DNA of 41,519 bases from a phage. The stretch lies in the sequence record NC_093711.1; one strand, given 5' to 3'. The notes below the pieces were generated by a model. That model was not told the origin of the DNA. It did not search any database and saw nothing but the letters and a program-made list of their open reading frames with translations. The translations under genes were made by a program, and so were the position numbers. This document shows positions 14,903 to 28,144 of this stretch, piece after piece. Within the stretch, counting starts at the first letter, position 1, and each line of letters starts with the position of its first letter.

Positions 14903-15079
14903 TTATTCCTCTGATTTCGCCTGGCGCTGGCGGCGCTGGCGGCGTGGTGTCTCTTCTTTAGCCGATTCTACCACGGTGCCTTCTGGTGCGAAACGAGCAT
15001 CTACCACACGGAACCCCTGACGGTTATACTCGCGCTTCTGCTCGATGGTAATCGGCATTGGTACGTATTTAATTTCCAT
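14903..15079 (-). CDS. small basic protein (58 aa), not in the ORF track
   Basis: Start MEIKYVPMPITIEQ is preceded by an AGGAG Shine-Dalgarno ~9 nt upstream; Arg/Gln-rich C-terminus. Lies between the capsid terminator and the connector gene. Below the 60-aa track cutoff. Confidence 0.4.
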   Translation of the reverse strand: MEIKYVPMPITIEQKREYNRQGFRVVDARFAPEGTVVESAKEETPRRQRRQRQAKSEE

Positions 15080-15136: not shown

Positions 15137-16123
15137 TCACTTGTCCGCGTCGGCGATTGCCAGAGTACCGAGGGTGTGCTTGTTCTCGGCAACAGCTTTG
15201 TCCCAGTTGGTCCCGGTGAACAGTTCTGCGTCCAGCGGAGATTTACCGCCGTTGGCGACATCCCAGCTATAGCCTTTCAGTTTCAGGCCGAAGCTGTAAT
15301 CCGCCTGCCAGGTGGTCTGGATGCGGGTGTTACCGTTGCTGGTATCAATGTTGCTGATAATGTCAGAAGCATTATCAACGATGATGCCGTTTGCAACTAC
15401 GGACAGGACCTTAGTCTTGTTCGGAGCACCGGCCTTGTTCGGAGCACCGGCCTCGTACAGCGCAGGAATGTCAGAGATTACGTAACGCTTGCCGAGAACA
15501 TCGACAACCATAACGTTACCGGCAACGAACAGCTGGTTTGCGTTAGTCAGCGCTTTATCTACCAGCGTGTGATAAGCAGCACCAGTCATGATGTCGGTAA
15601 TCAGCAGCTGAGACTGGTCGCCGAATTTAGCGTGGCTGTTGTTCAGCACGTTCAGGGACAGACCCACGGTTGCAGATACGTCGTTAACCAGCGAGGCCTG
15701 ACCAGATACCGCCGCAACAGCTGCGCCAACAGCGGTGTTGAGCTGGTCTGCTAACAGCGCATCGGAGAAGCCTTCGGAAATAGCACGAATCGCGCTTGCC
15801 GGGTCTTCGTTAAGCCAGGTCATTTGCGCAGGCTCGAACAGTACCGGTCCGAAGCCGCCAGCGACTTTAACGCCCACATGCTCGCCCTGAGTCAGCGCGG
15901 TAGCTGCCTGAGACTCGATAGCGGCGTAACGGTCAACGCGGCGTTTAGCGGAGGCAATCTGGTTAAAGAAAGACTCACGGGAGAAGTCACCGCGCCATGA
16001 AGCGGTAGACAGTACAATTGCGCCACCGGAGGCTGCGTTAAACTGGTCAGTTTTCTGGCCAAGCAGTTCGATAGTGGTACCGACGATATCGTCGTTATAA
16101 ACCTTCATATCTGACAGAGACAT
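15137..16123 (-). CDS. major capsid protein
   Basis: 328-aa ORF directly downstream of the scaffold gene and followed by a terminator. Contains a perfect 18-bp tandem duplication (15417-15452). Confidence 0.75.
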   Translation of the reverse strand: MSLSDMKVYNDDIVGTTIELLGQKTDQFNAASGGAIVLSTASWRGDFSRESFFNQIASAKRRVDRYAAIESQAATALTQGEHVGVKVAGGFGPVLFEPAQMTWLNEDPASAIRAISEGFSDALLADQLNTAVGAAVAAVSGQASLVNDVSATVGLSLNVLNNSHAKFGDQSQLLITDIMTGAAYHTLVDKALTNANQLFVAGNVMVVDVLGKRYVISDIPALYEAGAPNKAGAPNKTKVLSVVANGIIVDNASDIISNIDTSNGNTRIQTTWQADYSFGLKLKGYSWDVANGGKSPLDAELFTGTNWDKAVAENKHTLGTLAIADADK

Positions 16124-18135: not shown

Positions 18136-19211
18136 TATTCCCCTTTCAGATAATCAGCAACACGTTTATCGAGTTCCGCCATCTGCTTAAGCGTGAGCGG
18201 ATTCCCAAAACCATCTACAGATATTACGCGAAACTCTTCCGGCGATATACCGCTGTTACGGAAAATCTTACCTCGCACCGGGCCGAGCGCCTGGTCCTGA
18301 AACCATGCAGGTTGTTGTTTAAGGAACTCGTAATAAGTGGTGTCCGCGCTTACCTGAGTACCTCCGTCTGCACCTTTAGCCGCGCGTTTTGCGCCCTTAT
18401 CGAGGAAGTCGAACTCCGAACTGATTACAGGCGCAGTGGTGCTTCTGCACCCAAAATGGGCGGGGGGCATTGGCCCTTTACCGATTTCCCACGTCATTCC
18501 GTCTCTGGCTCTGCAAATCGTACTGGTACGGCTGTCCAGCGTTGACACCCACTCGTACTTCTCGATGATGTCGTCGTTCTGGCGGTACGTCTCGTTACGG
18601 GCTTCGTTGGACACGTGAGACAGCGCGGTGCGGATTACGGTAGCGGCATTACGTTCAGAGATGTCCGCCAGTCCGCCAGCGCCTACGATATTCTTAACAA
18701 TCTGCCGTGTGGTTTGGCCCTGCACAAAGCCCATCTTAACGCCGGTTACCAGGCGCGATACTTCGGTTTCACCCCAGCCGGACATCAGCTTAGTGAAATC
18801 AACGGGCTTGTCGCTTAACGATAAGGGCTGAAACTCGGCAGCGGCCCACACCTGCTCGGCGGTGGGTGTAACAAATTCCGCGTTAACGTTGGTGGTAAGT
18901 GTCTTTACGTTCCACTCAGCCTCATACGCCGCCAGTTCCTTGAGGTCTTCTGTCAGCTTTGTTTGCCAGTCACCTGTAAGTCCTGCCAGTGCGTCTTCCA
19001 GGTCACGTAACAGTTTATTCAGTCGCGCAGTGCTACGACCGTCGTCGCCGAATAACAGCACCTGCTGTTTTATTTCATCCCGCATCTCCTGAATAAACGG
19101 CGTAAGGTCTTTCACTTCGCCGGATGCGGTGCGTTGCAGCCATATCTGGTGGCTGATTAGAGATGTAAGTAAGCTCATAGATAAACCCTGTGGTACTAAA
19201 GTTAATAGCAT
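18135..19211 (-). CDS. head morphogenesis protein (Mu gpF / SPP1 gp7-like minor head protein)
   Basis: 358-aa ORF immediately downstream of the portal gene. Conserved-looking block TSTICRARDG...HFGCRST. Confidence 0.65.
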   Translation of the reverse strand: MLLTLVPQGLSMSLLTSLISHQIWLQRTASGEVKDLTPFIQEMRDEIKQQVLLFGDDGRSTARLNKLLRDLEDALAGLTGDWQTKLTEDLKELAAYEAEWNVKTLTTNVNAEFVTPTAEQVWAAAEFQPLSLSDKPVDFTKLMSGWGETEVSRLVTGVKMGFVQGQTTRQIVKNIVGAGGLADISERNAATVIRTALSHVSNEARNETYRQNDDIIEKYEWVSTLDSRTSTICRARDGMTWEIGKGPMPPAHFGCRSTTAPVISSEFDFLDKGAKRAAKGADGGTQVSADTTYYEFLKQQPAWFQDQALGPVRGKIFRNSGISPEEFRVISVDGFGNPLTLKQMAELDKRVADYLKGE

Positions 19212-19247: not shown

Positions 19248-20846
19248 TTACGGCTGAGTGGTGTCCTGTTGCTGCGCCGACTGCGGAATCTCCCCCGCCA
19301 CCTGGGTAACAGCACCTAACGGCAGCGGCGCATCCTCGATAGCGTTCTGAATGTCCTCGTCTGTCCAGTCAGTTACCCCCGCCTTACGCAACGCAGCATA
19401 GTAAGCGGTAGCCGGTAACAGGCCCGCGTTAATATCCGCCATCCACTGAGCGCGGTCCTGGGCGGTCATTGGTTGCAGGAAGAACTCCATGTTCAGTTTG
19501 AACTCAATTTCAGTGCCGTCGCTAAGCCCAAGCATACCAGCAACCCACTTCAGCGCATCGGTATACGCCATGCTTACGTTACGTGCGATTGTTGCCATGA
19601 CGGACGTATCAGCGCCGCGTTGCAGGCGTGCCGATTCCGCGGTGATTTGCTGCGTCGGGGTAATAAGCTGTGCACCAATCTGGATTGCCTGGTTCTCTTT
19701 ATCCAACATGTTCTGCTTGGCTAGGTTGTTCTCACCGGCCTGGACCAGAAACGCATTGCCGCCGTAACCGATGTTATGGCCAGAACGTGACCCCATACGC
19801 ACTCCGTGAGGGTTAGCTTCTTTCCACTGCGCCATGCTCATATTCTCACCGGGGGCGATGAACAGAGTAGGCTGGCCCACAACGAAGCTGGACTCCTCAT
19901 TGTCCGCGCTGTTGCGGAAGTGCCCGATATTAAGTTCAGCCAACGGCAGCAAAGGTGCATCGTCAGGGGTTGGGTCGTTATTTCCCGCGCCGATGAACGT
20001 GAACGGAATCACCCCGACCGGAATATTACCGAGTTTCGGGAATATTTCGATATAGCCACCTTCCGTCAGTGCACCTTTCTGGTTAAAGCGGTACAGACGC
20101 TGGCGATACTGGCCTTCGAAAATATCAAGGACTCGGTATTGCTCGCCGTAGTTGGGGCTGAACTCATCCGCGCCATCGGTGTACTCGTATTCCTCACGCA
20201 ATACAACCATAACCACACGATTAACAGACCCGACGCGCTGGAGACGCCAGTTGATGATATTCTCTGCGGTGTAGAAAGCGATTGTTGGGTTTAGTAAACC
20301 CTCGTTTTGCTCTGCCATGGTAGCTACTTCTACCGCGGGGGCGTCAACCAGCAAACCACCGCGACCAACGGCATCAATCTCATACAGAGTATCCTGTGCG
20401 TGCTGCCACAGGCCAACGCCCGACCCGTCACAGTTAGTGGTCAGGTATTCCATCTGAGACGGAATAATCATCTCGGGGTCTTTGCGCATTACGCTGCCGA
20501 CCATGCCTGAAAGCGTTCGCTTGGTGAAGTTGTAGCAAATTGCCCCCGCTTCGTATTCAGCCTGACGCTGGCGACCGTAAACCGGGTCCGGCTCGTTCTT
20601 ACTGACGTCACGTAGATACGATGTCAGGTCGCCAGAAAGCGCATGTCGCACCTTCTGCCACTTAGGGAAATACTCTTCGTACTGGCGGTGGCGGGTTTTA
20701 ACGTTCCTCCCTTTGTAGTAGATAGATGTCAGGTCGCCAGAAAGCGCATGTCGCACCTTCTGCCACTTAGGGAAATACTCTTCGTACTGGCGGTGGCGGG
20801 TTTTAACGTTCTGCCCTTGCCCTGCGTTAATGTTTGCGGAAACCAT
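19248..20846 (-). CDS. portal protein
   Basis: 532-aa ORF immediately downstream of the large terminase gene. The N-terminus carries a 105-bp (35-aa) in-frame tandem duplication. Confidence 0.8.
   Translation of the reverse strand: MVSANINAGQGQNVKTRHRQYEEYFPKWQKVRHALSGDLTSIYYKGRNVKTRHRQYEEYFPKWQKVRHALSGDLTSYLRDVSKNEPDPVYGRQRQAEYEAGAICYNFTKRTLSGMVGSVMRKDPEMIIPSQMEYLTTNCDGSGVGLWQHAQDTLYEIDAVGRGGLLVDAPAVEVATMAEQNEGLLNPTIAFYTAENIINWRLQRVGSVNRVVMVVLREEYEYTDGADEFSPNYGEQYRVLDIFEGQYRQRLYRFNQKGALTEGGYIEIFPKLGNIPVGVIPFTFIGAGNNDPTPDDAPLLPLAELNIGHFRNSADNEESSFVVGQPTLFIAPGENMSMAQWKEANPHGVRMGSRSGHNIGYGGNAFLVQAGENNLAKQNMLDKENQAIQIGAQLITPTQQITAESARLQRGADTSVMATIARNVSMAYTDALKWVAGMLGLSDGTEIEFKLNMEFFLQPMTAQDRAQWMADINAGLLPATAYYAALRKAGVTDWTDEDIQNAIEDAPLPLGAVTQVAGEIPQSAQQQDTTQP
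20620..20810. repeat. 105-bp tandem direct duplication inside the portal gene
   Basis: An 86-nt segment at 20620-20705 is repeated exactly at 20725-20810 (period 105 nt), duplicating ...KGRNVKTRHRQYEEYFPKWQKVRHALSGDLTS in frame. Confidence 0.85.
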
Positions 20847-20857
20847 TTGTTGTCCTC

Positions 20858-22108
20858 TTAAAGTGCGAAAGTCACCGGGATGTTGATTACTGGTTTAACC
20901 ACCGGCATCTCGTAAACTACAGGATAGCCGAGAGCATCCGCCATATGGTCAATGATGCCGTCTTTAGCTGGCTCTCCGTTATCATCGTATGCCTGCTGCT
21001 CCAGCGTCTTCGCTATCTCGGGGCATAAGTGGTCGTTAACCCACAGCTTACCTTTTTCCAGTGCGGTATTCACGGCTAAAACACGGTCTTTAACCGGAGG
21101 GTTGGCGGATTTAGCGCGAACATCTAAACCTGCCTGCTGGAGTAACGCAATATCTGAGATTGACGCCGAGTTGGTCTTGCGGTTCTTGCCGCTGGCGTCC
21201 GGGTAAACGACTATGCGGTGGCCCTGCGACTTCCACTTCTCAGTAATTACGCGCACGGTATCCGGTGTATCGAACAGGCCTTTCAGTTCTGCTACCGCGT
21301 GCCAGCCGTCTTTACGTTGCACATACACGGCGCTTGCGTTCTTCGTAACGTTGAAGTCCTGCCCGATGTACAACGTGTCACCCGGTTGAATTACCTCTTT
21401 GCTGCGGTGCTTACGGCGGTCATATGCGTAATACACGCTGCCGGAGGTAAGGTTGACGAACTCACCATTCAGATACGCGTTAATCAACTGCGCCGGATAA
21501 GTCTCGGTCAGCGAACTAATGTAGTCAGGTGGCAGGAATCGCGCGTTCTCGTGTGTAGAAGCCTGCACCATCGAGTAACTCGGCGTCGGGTTCTCTTTGA
21601 ACTTGGCGTAGACGAACTTGAACCCTTCCGGTGTCGTGGTGACAGAGATGTGGTTAGTTACGCCGGGGATAACCAGACGCATACGGGCGACTATTTTGTT
21701 CCACGCCAGCTCAGCTTTCTCACGGCTCAATACATCAAGCTCATCCACGACCGCAGCAGCGATTTTGAAGCCGACTATCGAGCCTGGGTTATCCATAGAA
21801 CGGCAGATAACTGTACCGAGCACCGTCTTACCGCGAGTAACCACGACTTCTTTGTCGCCAGATTTAACCAGCACATCGAGGCCGAGCAGGTTAGCGGCTT
21901 CCTCAAATGTCGGGTAGAAGATGTCACGGATAGCCGGGTATGTCGGGCCGAAGTAACCCAGGCGCGTACCTGGATGCTTGAGCATAAACGTAAGCAGGTC
22001 AAGGCAGCCAACAAATGTCTTTCCGCTGCCGAAGCCGCCGACATATGCCTTATATTTGTTATCACAATTCAGGAACAGCGCCTGCGGTGCGGATAGCTGA
22101 ATACTCAT
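20858..22108 (-). CDS. terL: terminase large subunit
   Basis: 416-aa ORF with Walker A-like GGFGSGKT near the N-terminus and an acidic C-terminal nuclease-like region. Start overlaps the upstream stop (ATGA). Confidence 0.85.
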   Translation of the reverse strand: MSIQLSAPQALFLNCDNKYKAYVGGFGSGKTFVGCLDLLTFMLKHPGTRLGYFGPTYPAIRDIFYPTFEEAANLLGLDVLVKSGDKEVVVTRGKTVLGTVICRSMDNPGSIVGFKIAAAVVDELDVLSREKAELAWNKIVARMRLVIPGVTNHISVTTTPEGFKFVYAKFKENPTPSYSMVQASTHENARFLPPDYISSLTETYPAQLINAYLNGEFVNLTSGSVYYAYDRRKHRSKEVIQPGDTLYIGQDFNVTKNASAVYVQRKDGWHAVAELKGLFDTPDTVRVITEKWKSQGHRIVVYPDASGKNRKTNSASISDIALLQQAGLDVRAKSANPPVKDRVLAVNTALEKGKLWVNDHLCPEIAKTLEQQAYDDNGEPAKDGIIDHMADALGYPVVYEMPVVKPVINIPVTFAL

Positions 22109-22650
22109 TCCTCTACCTCACCCATATTCGTTGTTACAATTTTACCTACAGGCTCTGCAACACTAAAAATAATCTCGGTCGGTGCCGTTTCTTCGGTGGA
22201 TTCAACTGGTTTCTCTTTGCCGAGGCCCAGCTTAGCGGCAGCAAATGTAGCCGAGATGCCCGCGGCCCCCGTCTCAGTGAAGTATGCCTCTTCCAGTGCC
22301 TGTGCGGTCTCCCAGGCTTCTGCGAATGCTGGAATCTCACGCAGCCATAGCTTAATAATAGGGATAGTGGCGCCGATGTGTAAGGCAAAGCGGGCCAGTG
22401 ACGGAGGTTTATCCTGAATCAGCGGGCGTTCGTCACCCTTAGACGTAGGCACGAGTTCCCACGACGTGCGGTCGAAGAACTCGATTAGCGCGTCGCAATA
22501 ATCCGGGTCCCACAGCGCGGCGGAATTACGGGATGATTGATAAAGGCTCTGTTTACCGCGCGGTCGTTTACGTCGGCGGTTTGCGCTAACAGCTTCTTCA
22601 TGTGCAGCTTGCACCACCTCTGGCGATGGCTGCTTGAGTTTCAGCTTCAT
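22105..22650 (-). CDS. terS: terminase small subunit
   Basis: Immediately upstream of and coupled to terL. Likely start MKLKLKQ with an AAGGGGA Shine-Dalgarno; the track ORF extends to 22689. Confidence 0.55.
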   Translation of the reverse strand: MKLKLKQPSPEVVQAAHEEAVSANRRRKRPRGKQSLYQSSRNSAALWDPDYCDALIEFFDRTSWELVPTSKGDERPLIQDKPPSLARFALHIGATIPIIKLWLREIPAFAEAWETAQALEEAYFTETGAAGISATFAAAKLGLGKEKPVESTEETAPTEIIFSVAEPVGKIVTTNMGEVEE

Positions 22651-28001: not shown

Positions 28002-28144
28002 TGTTGCATCTCCTGCAATAGTCGCTTCGATTGTTGCGTTTGTTGCGTTTGATGAAAGTGTCGCCTTTTGACGACACTAAGTTAAAGTTGTACGCTGCTG
28101 TGTAGCAGCGTAAGTCACTCAGTAAAATCCCAAACTATTGAACA

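Follow-up and report, generated by a model that had tools for sequence, protein, structure and literature searches.

The in-frame tandem duplication of 105 bp recorded in the portal gene of Escherichia phage G AB-2017 is very probably an untrimmed terminal overlap of the assembly, joined by a linker of N's that was later filled in, and not part of the phage genome. The first-pass annotation of this DNA had left two readings side by side, a real, recent duplication within an essential structural protein and an artefact of assembly or sequencing. The second is strongly favored by the comparison with relatives, the position of the repeat at the midpoint of the record, its garbled junction, the published joining of contig ends with N's and the scars found in five sibling records, and the first was not upheld.

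The window (the whole stretch of DNA analyzed, 41,519 bp) was identified as the genome of phage G AB-2017, GenBank KY295895, a K1H-like Kagunavirus. Its portal and terminase proteins match AQN31782.1 and AQN31783.1 of this phage exactly, and it is approximately 95% identical to Kagunavirus K1H, with which it is collinear in reverse complement. KY295895 and the ENA sample ERS1810220 are both assigned to phage G in Supplementary Table S1 of the original publication (PMC5582158).

An Exact In-Frame Repeat at the Start of the Portal Gene

It had been noted beforehand that a segment of 86 nt recurs exactly 105 nt further on, and that this constitutes an in-frame duplication of 35 residues at the N-terminus of the portal protein. 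Both observations were confirmed. A k-mer scan of the window extended the exact direct repeat to 87 nt (20620-20706 and 20725-20811), with a start-to-start distance of 105 nt, and an approximate repeat search stretched it to 94 nt at 98% identity. Tandem Repeats Finder reported the same region (20612-20818, period 105, 2.0 copies, score 393), and no other tandem repeat in the window came close to it in size. The junction pattern, defined as the end of the core, 0-30 nt and the start of the core, was matched in none of 100 shuffled sequences and once in the window, which was the positive control; therefore, the exact repeat of 87 nt did not arise by chance.

The repeat unit is in frame within the minus-strand ORF 19248..20846, which starts with MVSANINAGQGQNVKTRHRQYEEYFPKWQKVRHALSGDLTSIYYKGRNVKTRHRQYEEYFPKWQKVRHALSGDLTSYLRD, and adds 35 residues without introducing a stop codon, so that the ORF stays open over 532 aa. 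In gene orientation, the N-terminus of the recorded protein reads MVSANINAGQ-GQNVKTRHRQYEEYFPKWQKVRHALSGDLTS-IYYK-GRNVKTRHRQYEEYFPKWQKVRHALSGDLTS-YLRD. Outside the repeat, the flank of the copy nearest the start codon, with the ATG at 20846, does not differ from that of the relatives. The coordinates of these features, together with those of the scars described below for the sibling genomes, are collected in Table 1.

The assignment of this ORF to the portal family is supported by significant matches to PHROG phrog_145 "portal protein" (E=3.8e-153, covering residues 47-524 of the 532-aa ORF) and to Pfam PF13264 (DUF4055; E=1.6e-23, 83.8 bits against a cutoff of 25), by the adjacent gene of the large terminase subunit (TerL) and by the RefSeq annotation of the K1H orthologue (YP_009168835.1). 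Since the phrog_145 alignment starts only at residue 47, the extra copy lies outside the profile. When positions 20620-20724 were deleted in silico, a portal of 497 aa was obtained, identical to the K1H portal at 488 of 498 positions and throughout the first 100 aa. The true portal of phage G is almost certainly an ordinary protein of 497 aa and not one of 532 aa.

Table 1. Coordinates of the features of the phage G window and of the mid-record repeats in phage G and its sibling genomes.
Feature	Record length or midpoint	Position	Strand	Exact repeat	Period	Offset from midpoint (nt)	Remarks
Low-quality record start, putative artificial cut point from swapped contig halves		1..30	.				Six N's at 8, 12, 15, 24, 25, 30
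Portal gene as recorded, 532 aa		19248..20846	-				AQN31782.1 "putative structural protein"; DUF4055; phrog_145
Second repeat copy (gene orientation)		20620..20706	-				Contiguous with the remainder of the portal gene
Garbled junction, read as a filled-in N linker		20707..20724	-				Encodes the non-native peptide IYYKGR
Repeat copy nearest the start codon (first in gene orientation)		20725..20811	-	87 nt, identical to 20620-20706			Continues from the true 5' gene end
Large terminase (TerL) gene		20858..22108	-				Pfam Terminase_6N/6C; AQN31783.1; immediately precedes the portal gene in gene order
Repeat in phage G	Length 41,519			87 nt	105	-44; +9 when restored	35 extra aa in the portal
Repeat in phage L, KY295896	Length 41,039	20436-20495 / 20540-20599			104 (105 before a 1-nt loss in copy 2)	-9	
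Repeat in phage P, KY295898	Length 41,184	20520-20587 / 20599-20666		68 nt	79	+1	
Repeat in phage F, KY295894	Midpoint 19,650	19565-19752		87 nt	101	+8.5	
Repeat in phage B, KY295891	Midpoint 22,009	21935-22085		64 nt	87	+1	
Repeat in phage D, KY295893	Midpoint 22,465.5	22296-22457		62 nt	100	-89	

The Duplication Is Confined to the Deposited Phage G Genome

The comparison with the portal genes of related phages proposed in the first-pass annotation gave a uniform result: all 18 full-length relatives in the phage collection carry a single copy, and the region of the repeat spans 696 nt in each of them versus 801 nt in the window. An alignment with K1H, fKuEco01, BUCT789, ULINTec2, L, and P located a clean insertion of 105 nt in the window only. 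At the protein level, the 532-aa portal was found on one contig only, and the other full-length members of its 90% cluster, among the matches listed, measured 494-497 aa.

Additionally, the exact junction, as well as any junction of the form core end, 0-30 nt and core start, was searched for in IMG/VR, the JGI metagenomes, and the GTDB genomes, without a match; the negative result in IMG/VR is weak alone, given that this collection holds only 3 exact wild-type boundaries. An independent assembly of the phage G reads was also sought by exact protein look-ups in the Logan and ENA contigs, and none that was usable emerged. The exact look-up of the 358-aa Mu-F ORF of phage G in this collection found no record. 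Among ten other phage G proteins, eight were present in the collection and two were absent, most of the former being found only on the NCBI contig, and these look-ups recovered a sole Logan contig, a fragment of 1 kb belonging to the unrelated run SRR14509860.

Other Small Repeats in the Window

The major capsid gene (ORF 15137..16123, minus strand) contains an exact tandem duplication of 18 nt, CTTGTTCGGAGCACCGGC in 2.1 copies, at 15416-15453. It adds six residues, giving AGAPNK-AGAPNK versus AGTPNK in K1H, and the extra 18 nt were absent from all 18 relatives in the phage collection. As it is not at the midpoint of the record, this duplication is not a scar of circularization and may be a real in-frame insertion. 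Moreover, two tandem repeats with a 9-nt unit, at 14918-14944 (GGCGCTGGC, 2.4 copies) and at 28031-28051 (TTGTTGCGT, 2.3 copies), coincide with 9-nt insertions relative to K1H, and both look like ordinary length variation of the slippage type.

Anatomy of the Junction

The junction between the two copies (CTGACATCTATCTACTACAAAGGGAGGAACGTT) reads, in gene orientation, (C)TATCTAC-TA-CAAAGGGAGG, with 18-19 nt between the cores. Its first part, TATCTAC, corresponds to the normal 3' flank of the core, GTATCTAC, minus one G. Its last part, CAAAGGGAGG, corresponds to the normal 5' flank, CAAGGGCAG, but has an additional A and differs by two substitutions. Overall, the 18 nt of the junction comprise a deletion and an insertion of one base each, two substitutions, and two nucleotides that were assigned to neither flank. 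All of the differences between the two units lie within 20707-20724, and none was found in the two cores of 87 nt.

These features bear directly on the possibility that replication slippage or illegitimate recombination recently produced a genuine tandem duplication within the lineage of phage G, and that its junction was remodeled by later mutations. A recent natural duplication is disfavored because the joint is not a clean head-to-tail one, and an old one because the differences are clustered instead of being spread over both copies. The insertion is indeed in frame and free of stop codons, the start codon and the ribosome-binding region are intact, the N-termini of portal proteins lie outside the conserved profile, and phage G has another unique in-frame duplication, the one in the capsid gene away from the midpoint, which may be real. 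However, later mutation would have had to place about five changes, including a compensating pair of -1 and +1 indels, in a junction of 18-19 nt and none in 2 × 87 nt. The duplication is also absent from all of the relatives examined and from the three sequence collections searched, its site is the midpoint of the record, the sibling records are scarred at midpoints of their own, and the published joining procedure predicts exactly such an artefact (PMC5582158). Neither a clean joint nor evenly spread divergence was observed, and no independently obtained isolate, assembly or set of reads was found to carry the duplication. A natural origin of this kind is thus considered very improbable.

Published Assembly Procedure and Proposed Origin of the Repeat

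A circular or circularly permuted genome is returned by de Bruijn assemblers as a linear contig that carries one and the same stretch at either end. The repeat in the portal gene was examined against the procedure by which the deposited genomes were obtained. Nine historic K1 phages had been sequenced on a MiSeq instrument and assembled with SPAdes 3.6.2, which yielded one contig each (Baig et al., 2017; PMC5582158). These contigs were "circularised", that is, a short run of N's was placed between the end and the beginning of each, and bases from remapped reads then took the place of these N's (PMC5582158).

An untrimmed overlap would have passed through these steps as follows. The contig would have been cut mid-way and its halves swapped, which would bring the join of the old ends to the center of the record. 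If the terminal overlap was left untrimmed before joining, the reference would have consisted of overlap, linker, and overlap, an arrangement that no real read holds. Reads mapped from each side would then have carried the true following or preceding flank into the linker, and the consensus called there would be an error-laden blend of both flanks. As the unit happens to measure 105 nt, or 35 codons without a stop, gene calling would have given a portal of 532 aa.

Damage of the kind that consensus calling leaves was seen in several places: the errors in phage G are confined to the linker, the junction of phage D retains an N, phage L has lost one base and N's stand at the start of the window. 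The periods of the scars were also compared with the standard SPAdes k values (77, 99, and 127) plus an N linker of fixed length; the observed values of 105, 105/104, 79, 101, 87, and 100 fit no single scheme of this kind, a point against the proposed origin.

Record Midpoint, Record Ends and Genome Sizes

The midpoint of the phage G record is at 20,759.5 and the center of the junction at 20,715.5, which gives the offset of -44 nt. Between the end and the start of the window, 106 nt of the endosialidase tailspike gene are absent in comparison with K1H, L, and P. With these 106 nt put back, the junction lies at +9 nt from the midpoint, and the offset of -44 nt is explained only by their loss from the start of the record. 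The end and the start of the window both fall in the tailspike gene, and in K1H, L, and P they lie next to each other except for the missing 106 nt. From this adjacency, it follows that the halves would have been swapped. Since the record begins and ends inside this gene with 106 nt missing, the deposited tailspike is split and incomplete.

The window contains six N's, all of them within its first 30 positions. N's at this place are what a remapping consensus gives at the artificial end of a reference, and they fit a contig that was cut mid-way, with its halves swapped and its old ends joined centrally. That the repeat in phage G sits where the contig ends were joined is therefore indicated by the published N-join, by the junction close to the midpoint and by the adjacency of the window ends in relatives.

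The size of the phage G genome given in the paper is 41,624 bp (PMC5582158, Table 1), and exceeds the GenBank record by exactly 105 bp, the period of the scar. A third copy of the unit, or a mistaken trim, was entertained as the source of this gap and rejected, as the gap at the record ends is 106 nt and not 105 nt. For the podoviruses, the sizes in the paper exceed those in GenBank by 289 bp (R, B, and C), 288 bp (D), 250 bp (K), and 165 bp (F), which equal the reported lengths of their terminal repeats. Among the other siphoviruses, the two sizes differ by 1 bp for P and by 0 bp for L.

Scars in Sibling Genomes From the Same Pipeline

Genomes that had gone through the same pipeline provided the decisive control. 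The search for repeats was carried out over the whole record for the three siphoviruses (G, L, and P) and for K1H, and over the central ~3 kb for the podoviruses. Each of G, L, and P has exactly one large tandem repeat, located at its own midpoint and at a different locus in each genome, and no such repeat was found in the whole-record scan of K1H, which had been sequenced independently. With the podoviruses included, scars were recorded in L, P, F, B, and D, with exact cores of 60-87 nt and periods of 79-105, each at the midpoint of its own record and at unrelated loci (Table 1). By chance, a junction would fall no more than 10 nt from the midpoint of a record of ~41 kb with a probability of ~5e-4 per record, and coincidence is ruled out because midpoint scars recur across records at different loci.

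The scar in L (20421-20599) includes a garbled junction of ~30 nt, with 1 nt lost in the second copy, and splits the endolysin gene into two overlapping CDSs, L_34 (20266-20496) and L_35 (20460-20855). The scar in P is located inside the Rz spanin gene, and the corresponding CDS, P_25, is truncated to 219 nt versus 387 nt in K1H. The insertions in L and in P are each absent from the other three siphovirus genomes. Additionally, the ends of both records are seamlessly contiguous in the other genomes, as is predicted by swapped halves. Of the three scars in coding sequence, that of G keeps the reading frame and those of L and P do not, in line with the chance expectation of one in three. The scar in G looks like a tolerated duplication because this one-in-three chance fell on it.

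Regarding the podoviruses, an N is retained in D at 22358, precisely at the junction, which also holds an inverted copy of nearby sequence, and the 100-nt insertion of D is absent from the near-identical sibling R. No overlapping CDS is annotated at the scars of F and B, and the scar of D slightly overlaps D_33. No scar was found in R and C within the central ~3 kb scanned. The mid-record repeat of B was also observed to include a poly-A run of 20 nt.

A repeat of a more complex kind than the sibling scars was observed in phage K (KY295897), where 58 nt are repeated exactly at 18830-18887 and 19266-19323, with a spacing of 436. The first copy ends exactly at the midpoint of the record (18,887.5), and the repeat lies in a non-coding stretch of ~940 nt between the genes at the endosialidase end and the helicase gene. 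It probably marks the place where the terminal-repeat region was joined.

The distribution of the scars also bears on whether the ends of the phage G contig were real genome ends, with the assembler having put at the contig ends either a direct terminal repeat of short length or a packaging start inside the portal gene. Real terminal repeats are indeed present in the podovirus siblings; they measure 165-289 bp, equal to the size gaps between the paper and GenBank, and the gap for phage G is 105 bp. However, in the terminase phylogeny of the paper, G, L, and P group with phages that package by the headful mechanism and lack fixed ends (PMC5582158). The scars of the closely related L and P are in other genes (endolysin and spanin), which leaves no conserved terminus, and the copies of a true terminal repeat would match right to the boundary, without a garbled junction inside an essential gene. 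Real ends at this site are accordingly regarded as hardly credible.

A chimera formed during library preparation or sequencing, or a minority variant of the stock, could have been picked up independently of circularization. Very deep Nextera sequencing can give chimeric reads, and the raw depth was estimated at thousands-fold before subsampling to about 200x (PMC5582158). However, such an event would leave unexplained both the location at the midpoint and the recurrence in five sibling records, and a minority variant is not expected to dominate a consensus of ~240x, all of which makes this origin exceedingly unlikely.

Finally, the 105-bp duplication could be physically present in the historic Smith and Huggins stock of phage G, with the repeat itself having set the break of the assembler and, in this manner, the location at the midpoint. 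The chance of this being so is judged to be very slight. If it were true, a siphovirus portal would assemble and function with a 35-residue tandem repeat at its N-terminus.

Meaning for Databases

An untrimmed overlap with a filled linker, the origin favored here, has no biological import, as the portal would be of ordinary length, and the value of the result is one of data hygiene. The protein entry AQN31782.1 (UniRef100_A0A1Q1PUK7) would carry 35 spurious residues, and erroneous sequence would be present in at least six GenBank records (that of G and those of at least five siblings) and in the protein entries derived from them. These historic therapeutic phages are used as reference genomes, and the scars can thus spread into comparative and annotation work. 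A tandem repeat of approximately the k-mer length at the midpoint or the ends of a record may be used as a quick diagnostic for this class of artefact.

Comparison With Known Systems

Once one repeat unit is removed, the portal of phage G resembles, at 497 aa, those of the Guernseyvirinae and Kagunavirus (phrog_145, DUF4055; e.g., YP_009168835.1 of K1H). As deposited, it differs from the K1H portal by 35 extra residues after residue 11, outside the alignment with the family profile.

Genuine in-frame tandem duplications in phages are likewise arranged head to tail, in frame and within a structural gene. However, they have a clean junction and no reason to lie at the midpoint of a record, whereas the repeat of phage G shows errors clustered at its junction and is accompanied by scars in sibling records.

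A further likeness is to the terminal-overlap artefact of de Bruijn assemblers, in which contig ends that repeat each other leave a tandem duplication when they go untrimmed before circularization. As in that artefact, each scarred genome described here has a single tandem repeat close to the k-mer in size (79-105 nt), situated where the original contig ends meet; the scars are absent from relatives and appear in several genomes processed identically. Unlike the plain form of the artefact, they contain an N linker filled by remapped reads, with a garbled junction of 11-38 nt in place of a clean head-to-tail joint, and they are found in the middle of the record and not at its ends, owing to the swapped halves.
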